Position numbers and translations under genes: made by a program. Below, in pieces: positions 39,814 through 53,528 of a stretch of 64,000 nucleotides of DNA. Source of the stretch: Escherichia coli. GTDB lineage: Bacteria; Pseudomonadota; Gammaproteobacteria; Enterobacterales; Enterobacteriaceae. The stretch lies in NCBI RefSeq assembly GCF_003018255.1, contig NZ_CP027440.1. The stretch is one strand, 5' to 3'. How positions within the stretch are numbered: the stretch's first letter is position 1; each line of letters begins with the position of its first letter. The notes under the pieces were generated by a model that made no database searches, was not told the origin of the DNA, and saw only the letters and a list, made by a program, of their open reading frames with translations.

Positions 39814-40190
<377 letters not shown>

Positions 40191-43170: not shown

Positions 43171-44505
43171 TTATTTCTGCAATTCCATACGTTTAATGTC
43201 GCCAACTACGAAGAGGTAGCAGACCATCGCCATCAGCGCTGAACATCCCACGAAAACCAGTGCTGCATTGAAGGAGTGCAATTCACTTACCAGGTAGCCA
43301 ATCACCAGTGGAGTGACAATGGAGGCAACATTGCCAAAGACGTTAAAGACGCCGCCGCAGAGACCAACAATCTCTTTCGGCGCGGTGTCAGAAATCACTG
43401 GCCAGCCCAGCGCACCAAATCCTTTGCCAAAGAAAGCCAGCGCCATCAGCATGACCACCAGCGTGGTGTTGTTGGTGTAGTTACATAAGATGATGGTGGA
43501 AGCCAGCAACATTCCCAGCACAATCGGTAGCTTACGTGCCAGGGTCAGGGACAAACCGCGTTTGATCAGATAATCCGAGAAGACACCTCCCAGCACGCCG
43601 CCCGCAAAGCCACACAGTGCCGGAATCGAGGCGACCAGACCCACTTTCAGAATCGACATGCCTTTTTCCTGCACCAGATAAATTGGGAACCAAGTGAGGA
43701 AGAACCAGGTAATGGTGTTGATAAAATATTGTCCGAAAAATACGCCCAGCATCATGCGGTTAGAGAGCAATTGCTTGATGTAATGCAGTTTGGGACCACT
43801 TGCTGCCACACTGCCCGGCTTTTTGTGGTCCATATCGACCACCGCGCCATTTTCTGAGATAAACTTCAGCTCTTCCGCAGACATACGTGGGTGATCTGTC
43901 GGGTTATGAATCAACTTGATCCACAGCGCCGTCAGCACAAAACCAATTACCCCCATAACGGTAAAGACGTGCTCCCAGCCCCAGGCGAAAGTCAGCCAGC
44001 CAAGCAGCGGCGAAAAGAGCGCCAACGAGAAATATTGCGCCGAGTTAAAGATGGCGGAGGCAGTACCACGTTCTTTCGTCGGGAACCAGGCGGCGACAAT
44101 ACGGGCGTTCGCCGGGAATGATGGCGCTTCCGAGAACCCCAGCATAAAGCGCATAAAGAACATGGAGATCCCAGCCCAGGCCAGCGGAAACATATCGACA
44201 AAGCCTTGCAGGAAGGTGAACAGCGACCAGAAAAAGAGGCTGTAAGTGTAAACTTTCTTCGAGCCAAACTTATCAAGCAGCCAGCCGCCGGGAATTTGCA
44301 TCAGCAAGTAGGCCCAGCCAAAAGCAGAGAAGATGTAACCCATCGAAACCGCACTTAACTGCAACTCTTTTGCCACTTCGGTACCAGCAATAGACAGCGT
44401 TGCACGATCGGCGTAGTTAACGGCGGTAACAATAAAAATAATCAGTAATATTAAATAGCGGGTATGCACGCCTTTCTTTTTTTCGTCAACGGTGTCCAGC
44501 ATCAT
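43171..44505 (-). CDS. garP: Galactarate/glucarate transporter (MFS)
   Basis: 444-aa membrane ORF. Confidence 0.9.
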   Translation of the reverse strand: MMLDTVDEKKKGVHTRYLILLIIFIVTAVNYADRATLSIAGTEVAKELQLSAVSMGYIFSAFGWAYLLMQIPGGWLLDKFGSKKVYTYSLFFWSLFTFLQGFVDMFPLAWAGISMFFMRFMLGFSEAPSFPANARIVAAWFPTKERGTASAIFNSAQYFSLALFSPLLGWLTFAWGWEHVFTVMGVIGFVLTALWIKLIHNPTDHPRMSAEELKFISENGAVVDMDHKKPGSVAASGPKLHYIKQLLSNRMMLGVFFGQYFINTITWFFLTWFPIYLVQEKGMSILKVGLVASIPALCGFAGGVLGGVFSDYLIKRGLSLTLARKLPIVLGMLLASTIILCNYTNNTTLVVMLMALAFFGKGFGALGWPVISDTAPKEIVGLCGGVFNVFGNVASIVTPLVIGYLVSELHSFNAALVFVGCSALMAMVCYLFVVGDIKRMELQK

Positions 44506-44879
44506 TTTATTTACCTCGGGTACTTATGCTGATTTTTATTATTATGGGGAAGGTGTTATTTATGAGTTTCATTTATGCCGTTACGACAATGAACTCGGGA
44601 ATTAGTATAAGCAGCGCGAGAATAATAATCATTGTGCAAATGCTAATTTAATTAATACTATTTAAATATTATTTTGAGCATATGCACATAAGGTTGCGCG
44701 CTAAAGCACAGATTTGCGCTTTACCTTGCCGGGAGGTACTGCAATCCCTGAAATGATTGACATTGATCACATTTCTGCATTTAAACTCCTGACATTCTTA
44801 TTTCACCCAATGAAGTTATTTATTTTTAAATGAGACCAGGTCCTCATTTTAATAGTCCCTGGCTGGAGAATATTGCACA

Positions 44880-46451
44880 ATGGCCAACATCAAAATCAGA
44901 CAAGAAACGCCAACTGCGTTTTATATAAAAGTTCACGACACAGATAATGTGGCAATTATTGTTAATGATAATGGCCTGAAAGCAGGAACGCGTTTTCCGG
45001 ATGGGCTGGAATTAATTGAACATATTCCCCAGGGGCATAAAGTCGCATTGCTGGACATTCCGGCTAATGGTGAAATTATTCGTTATGGCGAGGTGATTGG
45101 TTACGCCGTGCGCGCAATCCCACGCGGAAGCTGGATCGACGAATCAATGGTTGTACTACCGGAAGCGCCGCCGTTACATACGCTGCCACTGGCAACCAAA
45201 GTCCCGGAACCCTTACCGCCGCTGGAAGGATACACCTTTGAGGGCTATCGCAATGCCGATGGCAGCGTGGGCACCAAAAACCTGCTCGGCATCACCACCA
45301 GCGTCCACTGTGTGGCAGGCGTGGTGGACTACGTAGTAAAAATCATTGAACGCGATCTGCTACCGAAATACCCGAACGTCGATGGCGTGGTGGGGCTGAA
45401 TCATTTGTACGGTTGTGGCGTGGCGATTAACGCACCCGCGGCAGTTGTACCTATTCGTACCATTCACAATATTTCGCTGAACCCTAACTTTGGCGGCGAA
45501 GTAATGGTGATTGGTCTGGGTTGTGAAAAGTTGCAGCCTGAACGCCTACTGACTGGAACGGATGATGTGCAAGCTATTCCAGTAGAAAGCGCCAGCATTG
45601 TCAGTTTGCAGGATGAAAAGCATGTCGGTTTTCAGTCCATGGTCGAGGATATTTTGCAGGTCGCCGAATGCCATCTACAAAAACTGAATCAACGTCAGCG
45701 AGAAACCTGTCCGGCTTCAGAACTGGTTGTCGGCATGCAGTGCGGTGGCAGCGATGCGTTTTCTGGCGTAACGGCAAACCCGGCGGTTGGGTATGCGTCT
45801 GATCTATTGGTGCGCTGCGGCGCAACGGTGATGTTTTCAGAAGTCACAGAAGTGCGTGACGCGATACATCTGCTGACACCACGCGCAGTGAACGAAGAGG
45901 TCGGCAAACGGCTGCTGGAGGAGATGGAGTGGTACGATAATTATCTCAATATGGGAAAAACCGATCGCAGCGCCAACCCTTCGCCGGGGAACAAGAAAGG
46001 CGGTCTGGCAAATGTGGTGGAGAAGGCACTCGGCTCCATTGCTAAATCGGGTAAAAGTGCAATTGTTGAAGTGCTGTCGCCCGGCCAACGCCCGACTAAA
46101 CGCGGATTAATTTACGCCGCGACGCCAGCCAGCGATTTTGTCTGTGGCACGCAACAGGTGGCTTCGGGTATCACCGTGCAAGTGTTTACGACCGGTCGTG
46201 GTACGCCGTACGGCCTGATGGCGGTACCCGTCATTAAAATGGCGACCCGCACCGAGCTGGCGAACCGCTGGTTTGATTTAATGGATATTAACGCGGGCAC
46301 TATCGCTACCGGCGAAGAAACCATTGAAGAAGTGGGCTGGAAGTTGTTTCACTTTATTCTCGACGTCGCCAGCGGGAAGAAGAAAACTTTCTCGGATCAA
46401 TGGGGACTGCATAACCAGCTGGCGGTGTTTAACCCGGCACCGGTGACCTGA
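44880..46451 (+). CDS. garD: Galactarate dehydratase
   Basis: 523-aa ORF; paralogous to UxaA on the same window. Confidence 0.9.
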
Positions 46452-46471
46452 TTTCTTTTGGAACGTCCCTC

Positions 46472-46504
46472 GCAAAACATGGCCTTAGTGCCATGTTTTT
46501 ATTG
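46472..46504 (+). terminator. Rho-independent terminator after garD
   Basis: gcaaaacatggccttagtgccatgttttt. Confidence 0.75.
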
Positions 46505-46599
46505 TTTAAAGTCCACACATCCATTAATAATGCATTTGCATTACCTTAGTTCAAGCTTATAATTTGAGCAGAAAACAGGCTGTAAAAGGACAGTAAATA

Positions 46600-46935
46600 A
46601 TGCCCGCTAATGCTCGCTCTAACGCTGTACTGACCACTGAATCAAAGGTCACTATACGCGGACAAACAACTATCCCCGCGCCAGTGCGTGAGGCCTTAAA
46701 ACTGAAGCCTGGCCTGGACAGCATTCATTACGAAATTCTGCCTGGTGGGCAAGTATTTATGTGCCGACTGGGAGATGAACAGGAGGATCATACTATGAAT
46801 GCATTTTTGCGTTTTCTGGATGCAGATATCCAGAACAACCCGCAAAAAACTCGTCCATTCGACATTCAACAAGGAAAGAAACTTGTCGCTGGCATGGACG
46901 TCAACATTGACGATGAGATTGGCGACGACGAATAA
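46600..46935 (+). CDS. prlF: Antitoxin PrlF (SohA), AbrB/SpoVT-type
   Basis: 111-aa ORF ending with acidic tail DDEIGDDE. Confidence 0.85.
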   Translation: MPANARSNAVLTTESKVTIRGQTTIPAPVREALKLKPGLDSIHYEILPGGQVFMCRLGDEQEDHTMNAFLRFLDADIQNNPQKTRPFDIQQGKKLVAGMDVNIDDEIGDDE

Positions 46936-47399
46936 TGGATTTTCCACAAAGGGTTAATGGTTGGGCGCTATATGCTCATCCCTGTTTTCAGGAAACCTAC
47001 GATGCTTTAGTTGCCGAAGTCGAGGCATTAAAGGGAAAAGATCCTGAAAATTATCAGAGAAAAGCTGCCACAAAGTTATTGGCGGTGGTCCATAAAGTGA
47101 TTGAGGAGCATATCACGGTCAATCCATCATCACCGGCATTCCGTCATGGCAAGTCGTTAGGCTCTGGGAAAAATAAAGACTGGTCACTGGTAAAATTTGG
47201 CGCTGGTCGCTATCGTCTCTTCTTTCGTTACAGTGAAAAAGAGAAAGTCATCATTCTGGGATGGATGAACGATGAAAACACGCTGCGCACCTACGGTAAA
47301 AAAACAGATGCCTATACCGTATTCAGTAAAATGTTAAAAAGAGGACATCCTCCTGCCGACTGGGAAAGCCTCACCCAAGAGACAGAAGAAAACCATTGA
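46935..47399 (+). CDS. yhaV: Toxin YhaV (ribonuclease)
   Basis: 154-aa ORF immediately adjacent to prlF. Confidence 0.85.
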   Translation: MDFPQRVNGWALYAHPCFQETYDALVAEVEALKGKDPENYQRKAATKLLAVVHKVIEEHITVNPSSPAFRHGKSLGSGKNKDWSLVKFGAGRYRLFFRYSEKEKVIILGWMNDENTLRTYGKKTDAYTVFSKMLKRGHPPADWESLTQETEENH

Positions 47400-47410
47400 T
47401 GGTGTTCACA

Positions 47411-47448
47411 ATGCCCGCCGAACGCATTGGTGTTGACCAGCGGGCATC
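47411..47448. terminator. Hairpin between convergent yhaV and agaR
   Basis: atgcccgc...gcgggcat inverted repeat. Confidence 0.5.
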
Positions 47449-47453
47449 CTTTC

Positions 47454-48263
47454 TCATTCCCCGACCAGAATCACTTCAACCCCAGCCTTTCTCAGTCCTT
47501 CCAGACTATCCGCAGGAATGCCTTCATCAACAATGATCATGTCGATACGTTGAGTATCAATGATCTTATGTAAACTAGAACGATTGAACTTACTGGAATC
47601 GGTGACCACGATGATCCGTTCCGCAACTTCGCACATCCGACGGTTTAAACGGGCTTCATCTTCATTATGCGTGCTGACGCCACGCTCCAGATCAATAGCA
47701 TCTACACCAAGAAACAGCATATCGAAGTGGTAATTTTGCAGCGATTGCTCAGCCTGATCGCCATAAAAAGATTGTGACTGACGGCGCAAATGCCCGCCGG
47801 TCATCAGCAGCTCAACACCTTCCGCTTCCAGCAACGCATTAGCCACGTTCATACCGTTGGTCATCGCAATTACGTCGGTGTGCTTGCGCATCAGACGAGC
47901 AATCTCAAAAGTGGTAGTCCCGGAATCGAGGATTACCCGATGACCTGGCTGAATCAACTCAACGGCAGCTTTCGCAACGCTGCGTTTCATTGCGGTGTTC
48001 AGCGCGCTTTTATCTTCCACTGATGGCTCGACTGACGGCGTCGTGCTATCGCAGATCAACGCGCCGCCATAGGCACGCACAGCGATCCCCTGCTTTTCCA
48101 GAAACGCCAGATCGTTGCGGATCGTCACAGTAGATACACCATACAACGCCGATAGATCATTAACTTGCACACTTCCTTGCTGGCGCAGGCGTTGAATGAT
48201 CTGCTCTCGTCGCTCACTGGTGCCTGTCACTCGCTTCTCGCCTGAAGCGTCGGTATTACTCAT
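47454..48263 (-). CDS. agaR: DeoR-family repressor of the aga regulon
   Basis: 269-aa ORF with N-terminal HTH. Confidence 0.9.
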
Positions 48264-48269
48264 AGTAAG

Positions 48270-48480
48270 TCCTTTCGTAAAACTTTCGTTTCATTTCGTT
48301 TTGCCTATTAACGCCTTTCTATTAAGCAAATGCAAGCCCACCTTACCCATTGGCGCAAGCTACTCTCGTTTCAGTGGCTTTCATTATGTTTCTTTTGTGA
48401 ATCAGATCAGAAAACTATTATCTTTCGTTTTATTTTTATCTCACCATGACGCAGTATCAACTGAAACAAAACGAAAGATT
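48270..48480. promoter_or_regulatory. agaR / kbaZ divergent promoters with AgaR operator repeats
   Basis: Repeated CTTTCGTTT(C/T)ATTT-type motifs: aactttcgtttcatttcgttttgcc, ctttcgttttatttttatc, gaaacaaaacgaaagatt. Confidence 0.6.
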
Positions 48481-48511
48481 AATATCGCAGTAATCTGAAC
48501 TGGAGAGGAAA

Positions 48512-49792
48512 GTGAAACATCTGACAGAAATGGTGAGACAGCACAAAGCGGGCAAAACAAATGGGATTTATGCCGTTTGTTCCGCACATCCGCTGGTGCT
48601 GGAAGCTGCAATCCGCTACGCCAGTGCAAACCAAACGCCGTTACTGATTGAAGCAACCTCCAATCAGGTGGACCAGTTCGGCGGTTATACCGGAATGACA
48701 CCCGCCGATTTTCGCGGCTTTGTTTGTCAGCTAGCCGACTCGTTGAATTTCCCGCAGGATGCGCTGATTCTGGGTGGCGACCATCTGGGGCCAAACCGCT
48801 GGCAAAACCTGCCTGCCGCTCAGGCAATGGCCAATGCCGATGATTTGATTAAAAGCTACGTGGCGGCAGGATTCAAAAAAATTCACCTTGATTGCAGCAT
48901 GTCCTGTCAGGACGATCCGATTCCCTTAACTGATGATATCGTGGCTGAACGCGCCGCCCGTCTGGCGAAAGTGGCGGAAGAAACCTGCCGTGAACATTTT
49001 GGCGAGGCCGATCTGGTGTATGTCATTGGCACCGAAGTTCCGGTGCCTGGCGGCGCGCATGAAACCTTAAGCGAGCTGGCGGTCACCACACCGGATGCCG
49101 CCCGCGCCACACTGGAAGCCCATCGCCACGCCTTTGAAAAGCAGGGCCTGAATGCCATCTGGCCACGCATTATTGCCCTGGTGGTTCAACCCGGCGTCGA
49201 ATTCGATCACACCAACGTTATTGATTATCAGCCCGCCAAAGCGACCGCCTTAAGCCAGATGGTCGAAAACTACGAAACGCTGATTTTCGAAGCGCACTCT
49301 ACCGATTACCAAACACCGCAATCGCTGCGCCAGCTGGTGATTGACCACTTTGCCATTCTGAAAGTTGGCCCGGCGCTGACCTTTGCCCTGCGTGAAGCTC
49401 TGTTCTCTCTGGCGGCGATTGAAGAAGAACTGGTACCAGCAAAAGCCTGTTCTGGTCTGCGTCAGGTGCTGGAAAACGTGATGCTCGACCGCCCGGAATA
49501 CTGGCAAAGCCACTACCACGGTGACGGCAACGCGCGTCGTCTGGCGCGTGGTTACAGCTACTCGGACCGCGTGCGCTATTACTGGCCAGACAGCCAGATT
49601 GATGACGCTTTCGCTCATCTGGTTCGTAATCTGGCGGATTCACCAATTCCGCTGCCGCTGATCAGCCAGTATCTGCCGCTGCAGTACGTGAAAGTTCGCT
49701 CCGGCGAGCTGCAGCCAACGCTACGGGAACTCATTATCAACCATATTCAGGACATCCTGGCGCAGTACCACACAGCCTGTGAAGGCCAATAA
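48512..49792 (+). CDS. kbaZ: Tagatose-bisphosphate aldolase non-catalytic subunit
   Basis: 426-aa ORF, GTG start. Confidence 0.85.
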
Positions 49793-49814
49793 GCAAAACA
49801 AAGAGGAACACGCT

Positions 49815-50288
49815 ATGCCAAATATTGTTTTAAGCCGGATTGATGAACGCTTGATTCACGGTCAGGTTGGCGTTCAGTGGGTCGGATTTGCGGGGGCAAA
49901 TCTGGTGCTGGTAGCCAACGATGAGGTTGCCGAAGATCCGGTACAACAAAACCTGATGGAAATGGTACTGGCAGAAGGGATCGCCGTACGTTTCTGGACG
50001 CTGCAAAAAGTTATCGACAACATTCATCGCGCCGCCGATCGACAGAAAATCCTGCTGGTTTGTAAAACACCTGCCGATTTCCTGACGCTGGTGAAAGGTG
50101 GCGTTCCGGTGAATCGCATTAACGTTGGCAATATGCACTACGCCAATGGCAAGCAACAAATCGCCAAAACGGTTTCTGTAGATGCGGGCGATATCGCAGC
50201 ATTTAACGACCTGAAAGCCGCTGGAGTGGAATGCTTCGTTCAGGGCGTCCCGACAGAGCCTGCTGTGGACCTCTTTAAATTACTTTGA
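49815..50288 (+). CDS. agaV: PTS GalNAc-specific EIIB
   Basis: 157 aa from MPNIVLSRIDERLIHGQ. Confidence 0.85.
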   Translation: MPNIVLSRIDERLIHGQVGVQWVGFAGANLVLVANDEVAEDPVQQNLMEMVLAEGIAVRFWTLQKVIDNIHRAADRQKILLVCKTPADFLTLVKGGVPVNRINVGNMHYANGKQQIAKTVSVDAGDIAAFNDLKAAGVECFVQGVPTEPAVDLFKLL

Positions 50289-50298
50289 GGGATTCATC

Positions 50299-51078
50299 AT
50301 GGAAATCAGTCTGTTGCAGGCATTCGCGTTGGGCATTATCGCCTTTATCGCTGGCCTGGATATGTTTAACGGCCTAACCCATATGCACCGCCCGGTGGTC
50401 CTCGGCCCGTTGGTCGGGCTGGTACTTGGCGATCTGCATACCGGTATTTTAACCGGCGGTACGCTGGAACTGGTGTGGATGGGGCTGGCCCCGCTGGCGG
50501 GCGCACAGCCGCCTAACGTGATTATCGGTACTATCGTCGGCACGGCGTTTGCCATTACTACTGGCGTGAAACCCGATGTTGCAGTCGGTGTCGCCGTACC
50601 TTTCGCTGTCGCAGTACAGATGGGGATTACCTTCCTGTTCTCGGTGATGTCTGGCGTAATGTCCCGCTGTGACCGGATGGCAGAGAACGCCGATACACGC
50701 GGCATTGAACGCGTGAACTATCTGGCACTGCTGGCACTCGGCACTTTCTATTTTCTCTGCGCTTTCCTGCCTATCTACTTCGGCGCGGAACATGCAAAAA
50801 CCATCATTGATGTCCTACCGCAACGATTAATCGACGGCCTCGGCGTCGCGGGCGGCATCATGCCAGCAATCGGTTTTGCCGTGCTGCTGAAAATCATGAT
50901 GAAAAACGTCTACATCCCCTACTTCATCCTGGGCTTTGTTGCCGCAGCCTGGCTCAAGTTACCGGTGCTGGCTATTGCTGCCGCCGCGCTGGCGATGGCG
51001 CTGATCGACCTGCTGCGTAAATCTCCTGAACCGACTCAACCTGCGGCACAGAAAGAGGAATTTGAAGATGGCATCTAA
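50299..51078 (+). CDS. agaW: PTS GalNAc-specific EIIC (full length)
   Basis: 259-aa ORF. Confidence 0.85.
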   Translation: MEISLLQAFALGIIAFIAGLDMFNGLTHMHRPVVLGPLVGLVLGDLHTGILTGGTLELVWMGLAPLAGAQPPNVIIGTIVGTAFAITTGVKPDVAVGVAVPFAVAVQMGITFLFSVMSGVMSRCDRMAENADTRGIERVNYLALLALGTFYFLCAFLPIYFGAEHAKTIIDVLPQRLIDGLGVAGGIMPAIGFAVLLKIMMKNVYIPYFILGFVAAAWLKLPVLAIAAAALAMALIDLLRKSPEPTQPAAQKEEFEDGI

Positions 51079-51946
51079 TCAAACCACCCTGCCGAACGTC
51101 AGTGAAAACGAAGAAACACTGCTGACAGGCGTCAATGAAAACGTGTATGAAGATCAGAGCATTGGCGCAGAGCTGACGAAAAAAGATATCAACCGCGTCG
51201 CCTGGCGTTCCATGCTGTTACAAGCGTCTTTTAACTACGAACGTATGCAGGCTTCTGGCTGGTTGTACGGTCTGCTGCCTGCTCTGAAAAAGATCCACAC
51301 TAATAAACGCGACCTGGCGCGCGCCATGAAGGGGCATATGGGTTTCTTCAATACCCATCCGTTTCTGGTGACGTTTGTTATCGGCATTATCCTTGCGATG
51401 GAGCGTTCTAAGCAGGACGTTAACAGTATTCAGAGCACCAAAATTGCCGTCGGTGCGCCGCTCGGCGGGATTGGCGATGCGATGTTCTGGCTAACGCTAC
51501 TGCCGATTTGTGGCGGGATAGGCGCAAGCCTCGCGCTACAAGGCTCTATTCTTGGCGCAGTCGTCTTTATTGTGCTGTTCAACGTGGTACACCTGGGGCT
51601 GCGTTTTGGTCTGGCGCATTATGCTTACCGCATGGGCGTGGCGGCGATTCCACTCATTAAAGCGAATACCAAAAAAGTCGGCCATGCTGCGTCAATCGTT
51701 GGGATGACGGTAATCGGCGCGCTGGTGGCAACCTATGTTCGTTTAAGCACCACGCTGGAAATCACCGCTGGCGACGCAGTGGTTAAGTTACAGGCTGATG
51801 TTATCGACAAACTGATGCCAGCCTTCTTACCGCTGGTCTACACCCTGACCATGTTCTGGCTGGTACGCCGCGGCTGGAGTCCGCTGCGCCTGATTGCAGT
51901 GACCGTGGTTCTCGGCATCGTCGGTAAATTCTGCCATTTCCTTTAA
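51068..51946 (+). CDS. agaE: PTS GalNAc-specific EIID
   Basis: Start MASNQ overlapping agaW end by 11 nt, same architecture as agaC/agaD. Confidence 0.8.
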   Translation: MASNQTTLPNVSENEETLLTGVNENVYEDQSIGAELTKKDINRVAWRSMLLQASFNYERMQASGWLYGLLPALKKIHTNKRDLARAMKGHMGFFNTHPFLVTFVIGIILAMERSKQDVNSIQSTKIAVGAPLGGIGDAMFWLTLLPICGGIGASLALQGSILGAVVFIVLFNVVHLGLRFGLAHYAYRMGVAAIPLIKANTKKVGHAASIVGMTVIGALVATYVRLSTTLEITAGDAVVKLQADVIDKLMPAFLPLVYTLTMFWLVRRGWSPLRLIAVTVVLGIVGKFCHFL

Positions 51947-51963
51947 ATACAATGAGGTATTAG

Positions 51964-52398
51964 ATGTTAAGTATTATTTTGACAGGGCATGGCGGGTTTG
52001 CCAGTGGCATGGAAAAAGCAATGAAGCAAATCCTCGGCGAGCAATCGCAGTTTATTGCCATCGATTTTCCGGAAACCTCAAGCACCGCGCTGCTTACATC
52101 GCAGCTTGAAGAGGCCATCGCCCAACTGGATTGTGAAGACGGCATTGTTTTTCTGACGGATTTGCTGGGCGGCACGCCGTTTCGCGTAGCTTCAACGCTG
52201 GCGATGCAAAAACTGGGCTGTGAAGTGATTACCGGCACCAATTTGCAACTGCTACTGGAGATGGTGCTGGAGCGCGAAGGGTTAAGCGGTGAAGAGTTTC
52301 GTGTGCAGGCGCTGGAGTGTGGACATCGTGGGCTGACCAGTCTGGTGGACGAGTTAGGCCGCTGCCATGAGGAATGTCCGGTCGAGGAAGGAATATGA
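51964..52398 (+). CDS. agaF: PTS GalNAc/GalN EIIA
   Basis: 144-aa ORF. Confidence 0.8.
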   Translation: MLSIILTGHGGFASGMEKAMKQILGEQSQFIAIDFPETSSTALLTSQLEEAIAQLDCEDGIVFLTDLLGGTPFRVASTLAMQKLGCEVITGTNLQLLLEMVLEREGLSGEEFRVQALECGHRGLTSLVDELGRCHEECPVEEGI

Positions 52399-53528
52399 CA
52401 CCCGTTTTGCGCGCCAGAAGGCTGCTGACTGAAGAGGGATGGCTCGATGACCATCAGTTGCGTATTGCTGACGGTGTAATCGCAGAAATCGAACCGATTC
52501 CAGTGGGCGTGACTGAACGCGATGCGGAACTGCTCTGCCCCGCTTACATCGACACCCATGTACACGGTGGTGCGGGCGTTGATGTAATGGATGACGCGCT
52601 GGATGTGCTCGACAAGCTGGCAATGCACAAAGCACGCGAAGGTGTCGGCAGTTGGTTACCGACCACCGTAACCGCGCCGCTTAATACCATTCATGCGGCG
52701 CTGGAACGTATTGCTCAACGTTGCCAACGCGGCGGACCTGGTGCACAAATACTGGGGAGTTATCTCGAAGGACCGTACTTCACGCCGCAGAATAAAGGCG
52801 CGCATCCGCCGGAGCTGTTTCGCGAGCTGGAAATTGCCGAGCTGGATCAATTGATTGCCGTTTCTCAGCACACCTTGCGCGTGGTGGCGCTGGCACCGGA
52901 AAAAGAAGGGGCATTGCAGGCCATCCGCCATCTTAAACAGCAAAACGTAAGGGTGATGCTGGGGCATAGCGCGGCGACCTGGCAACAAACCCGCGCCGCG
53001 TTTGATGCTGGTGCCGACGGCCTGGTGCATTGCTATAACGGGATGACAGGTTTACATCACCGCGAACCGGGAATGGTTGGCGCGGGATTAACGGACAAGC
53101 GCGCCTGGCTGGAACTGATAGCCGATGGTCATCATGTGCATCCGGCGGCGATGTCGCTGTGTTGTTGCTGTGCGAAAGAGAGAATCGTGCTGATCACCGA
53201 CGCGATGCAGGCAGCCGGGATGCCGGATGGTCGCTATACGTTATGTGGCGAAGAAGTGCAGATGCACGGTGGCGTTGTCCGTACCGCGTCCGGTGGGCTG
53301 GCGGGCAGTACGCTGTCTGTTGATGCGGCAGTGCGCAACATGGTTGAGTTGGCGGGTGTAACGCCTGCGGAAGCCATCCATATGGCATCGCTGCATCCGG
53401 CGCGTATGCTGGGTGTTGATGATGTTCTGGGATCGCTTAAACCGGGCAAACGCGCCAGCGTCGTTGCGCTGGATAGCGGGCTGCATGTGCAACAAATCTG
53501 GATTCAGGGTCAATTAGCTTCGTTTTGA
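52395..53528 (+). CDS. agaA: N-acetylgalactosamine-6-phosphate deacetylase (full length)
   Basis: ATG at 52395 overlapping agaF stop; 377 aa; metal-binding HVHGG motif. Confidence 0.85.
   Translation: MTPVLRARRLLTEEGWLDDHQLRIADGVIAEIEPIPVGVTERDAELLCPAYIDTHVHGGAGVDVMDDALDVLDKLAMHKAREGVGSWLPTTVTAPLNTIHAALERIAQRCQRGGPGAQILGSYLEGPYFTPQNKGAHPPELFRELEIAELDQLIAVSQHTLRVVALAPEKEGALQAIRHLKQQNVRVMLGHSAATWQQTRAAFDAGADGLVHCYNGMTGLHHREPGMVGAGLTDKRAWLELIADGHHVHPAAMSLCCCCAKERIVLITDAMQAAGMPDGRYTLCGEEVQMHGGVVRTASGGLAGSTLSVDAAVRNMVELAGVTPAEAIHMASLHPARMLGVDDVLGSLKPGKRASVVALDSGLHVQQIWIQGQLASF

Follow-up and report, generated by a model that had tools for sequence, protein, structure and literature searches.

An R85L toxin allele in the chromosomal prlF-yhaV toxin-antitoxin operon of Escherichia coli

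Organization of the prlF-yhaV locus

The window, i.e. the whole 64,000-nt stretch of E. coli DNA analyzed in this study, contains two co-oriented genes, prlF (sohA) and yhaV, which are arranged in the antitoxin-first bicistronic order. The stop codon of prlF (TAA, 46933-46935) and the start codon of yhaV (ATG, 46935-46937) overlap within the sequence TAATG (46933-46937), with the single base 46935 shared by both. The ORF coordinates and the 1-nt overlap given in an earlier sequence-only reading of this DNA were reproduced exactly. The proposed location of the pair between the gar and aga clusters was also confirmed: the upstream neighbour, garD, encodes a 523-aa galactarate dehydratase (TIGR03248, E 7e-283), and the downstream neighbour, agaR, which is located on the opposite strand in convergent orientation, encodes a 269-aa DeoR-type repressor (AgaR equivalog NF040755, E 4e-140). 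The features of the locus are listed in Table 1.

Table 1. Features identified in and around the prlF-yhaV operon (positions refer to the window).
Feature	Position	Strand	Characteristics and basis
garD intrinsic terminator	46474..46510	+	Hairpin with T-rich tail; terminator scan, inverted repeat, fold -15.7 kcal/mol
Perfect palindrome TAATGCA-tt-TGCATTA	46528..46543		7-2-7 inverted repeat over the -35 hexamer
Sigma-70-like promoter	46535..46563	+	Consensus match only, 10/12 (promoter scan)
Shine-Dalgarno-like AAGGA	46586..46590	+	9 nt ahead of the prlF ATG; read from the sequence
prlF (sohA)	46600..46935	+	111-aa antitoxin and autorepressor; PF15937 E 4.1e-41, NF007429 E 7.5e-50
Site of the prlF 7-bp slippage hot spot, codons 86-91	46856..46871	+	Direct comparison with K-12
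yhaV	46935..47399	+	154-aa RelE/ParE-fold ribosome-dependent mRNA endonuclease toxin (predicted); PF11663 E 1.3e-52
yhaV codon 85	47187..47189	+	CTG (Leu) for CGG (Arg); G to T at 47188
GC-rich hairpin, yhaV/agaR intergenic	47411..47447		Fold -23.4 kcal/mol, z = -1.48

The HMM search that had been proposed as a check of the toxin and antitoxin assignments was performed, and supported both assignments, with scores above the cut-offs of the PrlF and YhaV family models. Residues 14-110 of PrlF match the whole of the PF15937 PrlF_antitoxin profile (positions 1-99 of 99) with 139.6 bits (cut-off 32), and the protein scores 167.6 bits against the NCBIfam PrlF equivalog NF007429 (cut-off 125). Residues 12-150 of YhaV match positions 1-137 of the 138 positions of PF11663 Toxin_YhaV with 177.9 bits (cut-off 35). 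A profile search of NCBIfam gave no match for YhaV, and neither protein corresponds to a defence-system model of PADLOC. A megablast search with the segment 46452..47453 revealed the locus, annotated as prlF/yhaV, in 5167 of the 5426 complete E. coli genomes, with the best matches being 99.9% identical. The RefSeq annotations of K-12 and of the closest genomes show the same two genes at this location. PrlF is 100% identical to the protein of strain CFT073 (PRLF_ECOL6), and its exact sequence is present on at least 1000 public contigs. The pair is almost certainly the chromosomal prlF(sohA)-yhaV type II toxin-antitoxin operon of E. coli, located, as is canonical, between garD and agaR and represented by a CFT073-like allele. 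It is an already known, well-characterized system, which is ordinary apart from the R85L substitution in the toxin.

Antisense and alternative-frame ORFs across the locus (e.g. 46696..46947, minus strand, and 46799..46957, plus strand) were set aside as shadows of the two genes. No Rfam family was found within the region 44000..50000 at E <= 1. Elsewhere in the window, rnpB (39814-40190, minus strand) encodes a bacterial RNase P class A RNA (Rfam RF00010, 319.7 bits, full length). The aga cluster (50299-53528, plus strand) appears intact and includes ORFs of the size of agaW (50299..51078) and agaA (52374..53528). Both of these genes are annotated as pseudogenes in K-12, and the window is therefore of a GalNAc-utilizing, non-K-12 type. 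Over a 24-kb segment (36000-60000), none of the 5426 complete E. coli genomes exceeds 99.4% identity to the window, which indicates that the source lineage is not closely represented among them.

The garD terminator lies 23 nt past the garD stop codon. Its hairpin (46474..46499) is built of a 10-bp perfect stem (AAAACATGGC / GCCATGTTTT) with a 6-nt loop, followed by the sequence TTTTTATTGTTT, and it is predicted to insulate the prlF promoter from garD read-through. The predicted promoter consists of the -35 hexamer TTTGCA (46535-46540) and the -10 hexamer TATAAT (46558-46563), separated by a 17-nt spacer. The segment containing the promoter and the palindrome (46520-46594) is identical in sequence to that of K-12. 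A palindrome within the promoter of prlF has been reported as the binding site of the PrlF-YhaV complex (PMC7781912). The palindrome of the window, placed over the -35 hexamer, fits this published operator and is a candidate site for autorepression by PrlF-YhaV.

The sequence-only reading had placed terminators on both sides of the pair. If a terminator is defined as a GC-rich hairpin followed by a T run, this is true of the upstream side, but not of the downstream one. The sole element located between the stop codons of yhaV (47399) and agaR (47454) is a hairpin with an 8-bp stem, ATGCCCGC / GCGGGCAT (47411-47418 / 47440-47447), and a branched 21-nt loop containing an inner 5-bp hairpin. It is followed by a weak tail, CCTTTCTCATTCC, and its tail on the agaR strand contains no T run. 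The folding energy of this element is unremarkable (16 of 200 shuffled sequences fold as well), and the terminator scan made no call at its position. It may possibly act as a weak, non-canonical terminator of yhaV.

The antitoxin PrlF and the fold of the toxin YhaV

The N-terminal part of PrlF (residues ~15-38) is putatively AbrB/MazE-like, while its C-terminus is acidic (DDEIGDDE). Within residues 15-38, the protein was matched by TIGR01439 (E 4.2e-6) with 26.4 bits, under the cut-off of 28.3, and by PF04014 MazE_antitoxin (E 0.004) with 17.5 bits, under the cut-off of 24.7. Alignments produced by hhalign against single sequences of the AbrB N-domain (residues 16-37 aligned, E 0.047) and of MazE were uninformative. 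The AF2 model of the PrlF monomer, based on an alignment of 13 sequences, was unreliable (pLDDT 49), probably because domains of the AbrB type form only as swapped dimers and because the C-terminus requires the toxin for folding. The AbrB-type label that had been given to PrlF was thus sub-threshold in the profile searches, and it rests mainly on published work (Coles 2005 and Schmidt 2007, as cited in PMC7781912).

The AF2 model of YhaV, built with 44 homologues, was of much higher confidence (pLDDT 90.7, pTM 0.87), with the core strands comprising residues 84-88, 93-100 and 105-111. The top Foldseek matches of this model in the PDB were exclusively toxins of the RelE/ParE superfamily: (i) PfiT (E 8e-5), (ii) HigB2 (E 2e-3), (iii) E. 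coli RelE (4fxh_B, E 3e-3, prob 1.0), and further (iv) RelE1/RelE2 of M. tuberculosis and (v) ParE, with TM(target) values of up to 0.79. Residues 72-108 also gave a weak match to the ParE_toxin Pfam family (E 0.21). Judging from the modelled structure, YhaV is a toxin of the RelE/ParE (BECR-fold) superfamily, with an antiparallel sheet of three to four strands against which helices are packed. This agrees with its placement in the literature among the BECR-fold, ribosome-dependent mRNA interferases (PMC11980606; PMC7781912). A sequence search of the PDB with YhaV and PrlF revealed neither a solved structure nor a true homologue; matches to ThreeFoil, AAC/APH and Cse2 were rejected as spurious.

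Variation at the prlF slippage site and at YhaV codon 85

The site of the 7-bp slippage hot spot differs between the two prlF alleles compared. In K-12 its sequence is CATTCAACATTCAACA, i.e. (TTCAACA)x2, while in the window it is CATTCGACATTCAACA (TTCGACA TTCAACA). The G at position 46861, which replaces the A of K-12, specifies D88 instead of N88 and interrupts the perfect tandem repeat. Since D88 is the consensus residue of the PrlF family, the hot spot is, as judged from this comparison, a feature of K-12-type prlF alleles that is absent from the allele of the window. Expansion of the K-12 repeat from two to three copies is a recurrent prlF mutation of laboratory evolution, and confers resistance to carbenicillin, aztreonam and D-valine via lower ompF expression (PMC7686311). 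The prlF slippage mutation has also been found in gallium-resistance lines (PMC13160365). Among public sequences, PrlF variants of 118, 125 and 137 aa contain in-frame FNIQHST repeats, while in a further group (130, 137, 144 and 151 aa) a frameshift leads into the +1 frame. All of the expanded and frameshifted variants seen are on the N88 background. The alternative-frame ORF located within prlF (46799..46957, plus strand, 52 aa) corresponds to the frame that is read by the frameshifted slippage alleles. These alleles end in ...FNKERNLSLAWTSTLMMRLATTNNGFSTKG, 22 nt beyond the yhaV start.

The second variable site lies in the toxin gene. Residue 85 is Arg in all 43 other aligned homologues (48-98% identity) and in 126 of the 129 family proteins carrying the W-x-R-x-K-F motif. 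The three exceptions are the L85 allele, one R85G variant in E. coli and one protein with Cys. The L85 protein retains all 26 other invariant columns, including W10, W83, K87, R92, R98, R118, Y120, K123, D125 and Y127. Since the substitution affects an invariant residue, full activity of the toxin is not assured, although its homology is unaffected. The module, described earlier as intact, is therefore intact with respect to its reading frames, but not assuredly with respect to toxin activity. No mention of YhaV R85 was found in the literature searched.

In the YhaV model, R85 is located in the first core beta-strand (W-S-R-V-K-F). A Smith-Waterman alignment of YhaV with E. coli RelE paired R85 with K52, K87 with K54 and R94 with R61. 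The same register was obtained by profile-profile hhalign against 11 RelE homologues, with an E value (0.24) that is not significant; these homologues were fetched from plasmids, and the RelE query was 100% identical to annotated relE genes. This register agrees with the predicted YhaV strands 84-88 and 93-100. An hhalign alignment of YhaV with a single RelE sequence (E 0.21), which had a different register and aligned the wrong region, was rejected. We infer this residue mapping from alignments that are singly non-significant, with the fold match as support. K52 of RelE is superimposable on the general base of RNase Sa2, and the K52A substitution led to no significant decrease of activity when cleavage was assayed at the end point, while R61A, R81A and Y87A proteins were strongly impaired (Neubauer et al., PMC2807027). 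The behaviour of K52A indicates that R85L might be tolerated in YhaV.

Predicted activity of the module and comparison with known systems

The release of YhaV from PrlF occurs through Lon-dependent degradation of the antitoxin. By analogy with the K-12 orthologue described in the literature, PrlF would bind YhaV, and the complex would bind the promoter palindrome and repress the operon, while free YhaV would cleave mRNA on translating ribosomes and halt growth. The 1-nt overlap within TAATG suggests that translation of yhaV may be coupled to that of prlF. The PrlF-YhaV heterohexamer, its palindromic operator and the ribosome-dependent cleavage are summarized in PMC7781912 and PMC11980606, and the toxicity of YhaV and its neutralization by PrlF in K-12 have been published (Schmidt 2007, as cited in PMC7781912). 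A different view of the pair, as a regulator of protein export or Lon activity (the historical prlF/sohA phenotype) accompanied by an unrelated small protein, recalls that prlF was originally identified through its suppression of export defects and of htrA (PMC7781912), and that prlF slippage mutations alter the expression of ompF and sodB as well as drug resistance (PMC7686311). The latter phenotypes have, however, been attributed to deregulated YhaV (PMC7686311). The RelE/ParE toxin fold and the Toxin_YhaV HMM signature of YhaV, together with the classic antitoxin-first, overlapping arrangement of the genes, also make this explanation highly improbable.

As regards the R85L substitution, the window departs from the nearest complete genomes, within 1002 bp, only by the G-to-T change at 47188, and the surrounding 80 bp are identical in none of the 5000 matching complete E. 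coli genomes. Such an isolated single-base difference might be expected of a sequencing or assembly error in a gene that is truly of the common type. This explanation is effectively refuted, and we consider it extremely unlikely: the exact L85 protein has several independent NCBI accessions, and it is encoded on at least 59 public contigs and in 87 index blocks (NCBI, ENA, JGI, Logan), in every case flanked by garD and agaR. In addition, GCA_032429015.1 includes a draft contig of 4465 bp that matches the window with 100% identity. The R85L allele is therefore real. It is plausible that the substitution attenuates YhaV. Its most likely consequence would be a decrease in RNA cleavage or binding by the toxin, which would leave PrlF to act mainly as an autoregulator. 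We consider it possible, although less likely than not, that R85L represents a naturally disarmed or strongly attenuated allele, which has spread in one E. coli lineage beside a D88 prlF gene without the slippage hot spot. Since loss-of-function mutations of yhaV were repeatedly selected in chemostat evolution (PMC5960147), the existence of a disarmed natural allele would not be surprising. It is also possible, albeit somewhat doubtful, that R85L is neutral or near-neutral and that the module is fully functional, with a K-12-like behaviour. Both reading frames are intact, as are the promoter and the palindrome, all of the other invariant residues are retained, the equivalent K52A substitution in RelE was without significant loss of activity (PMC2807027), and the allele persists on its 59 or more contigs with an unchanged PrlF. 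A disarmed toxin would, however, be equally expected to persist. The conservation of the Arg down to homologues of 48% identity, and the fact that its replacement by Leu would remove a charge from the basic strand lining the RelE-type active site, also argue against neutrality.

About a dozen type II toxin-antitoxin modules have been characterized in E. coli, among them prlF-yhaV, which ~95% of complete genomes carry. The overall significance of the locus is small, and a modest value exists only at the level of the alleles: (i) a circulating allele in which an arginine of the toxin, invariant and probably part of the active site, is replaced, and (ii) a prlF gene without the perfect 7-bp repeat by which laboratory strains repeatedly acquire multidrug-tolerance mutations. 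Both may be of use in studies of the natural decay of chromosomal toxin-antitoxin systems, or in predicting which strains may gain resistance by the prlF route. If the R85L toxin is indeed disarmed, the lineage would have, in combination with D88 prlF, a module locked permanently "off". It would be a natural counterpart of the yhaV loss-of-function mutants selected in chemostats (PMC5960147), and its prlF would lack the hot spot by which K-12-type strains deregulate the system.

The PrlF-YhaV system of K-12 (b3129-b3130; Schmidt et al. 2007; Choi et al. 2017) shares with that of the window the same genes, gene order and 1-nt overlap, as well as the layout garP-garD-prlF-yhaV-agaR-kbaZ and an identical promoter and palindrome. 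The two loci differ at 26 nucleotide positions in 1002 bp, and relative to K-12 the proteins of the window carry the substitutions H8N, Q39L and N88D in PrlF and T31A, R85L, T145S, R148Q and T153N in YhaV. A closer relationship is observed with the CFT073-type allele, whose PrlF is the same protein, and with the nearest complete genomes (e.g. strain 104, accession no. NZ_CP029164.1), which are 99.9% identical in DNA sequence over 1002 bp and differ only at position 47188.

The RelBE system (E. coli RelE, PDB 4fxh/4fxe/4v7j) is a more distant relative. Its toxin has the same fold as YhaV (Foldseek prob 1.0), and both proteins carry out ribosome-dependent mRNA cleavage (PMC7781912, PMC11980606). 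Their basic beta2-beta3 motifs, YKIKLRSSGYRL in RelE and SRVKFGAGRYRL in YhaV, are in the same register, although the sequence similarity of the two toxins is not significant. YhaV is larger than RelE (154 vs 95 aa), with additional N-terminal strands and helices and a C-terminal helix, and the antitoxins are of different types, i.e. AbrB, as judged mainly from published work, in the case of PrlF and ribbon-helix-helix in the case of RelB.

Toxins of the same Pfam family as YhaV, with 50-65% identity, are encoded by plasmids of Pantoea, Rhodobacterales and Salmonella, where they are annotated as YhaV-family type II toxins. This plasmid-borne group comprises 327 records, 174 of which (more than half) are conjugative, whereas the copy in the window is chromosomal and fixed in the species. 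The G+C content of the module (0.44-0.47) is lower than that of garD, agaR and kbaZ (0.53-0.55). Taken together with the plasmid-borne members of the YhaV family, this is consistent with the ancient acquisition of a mobile module, which is now fixed in E. coli.
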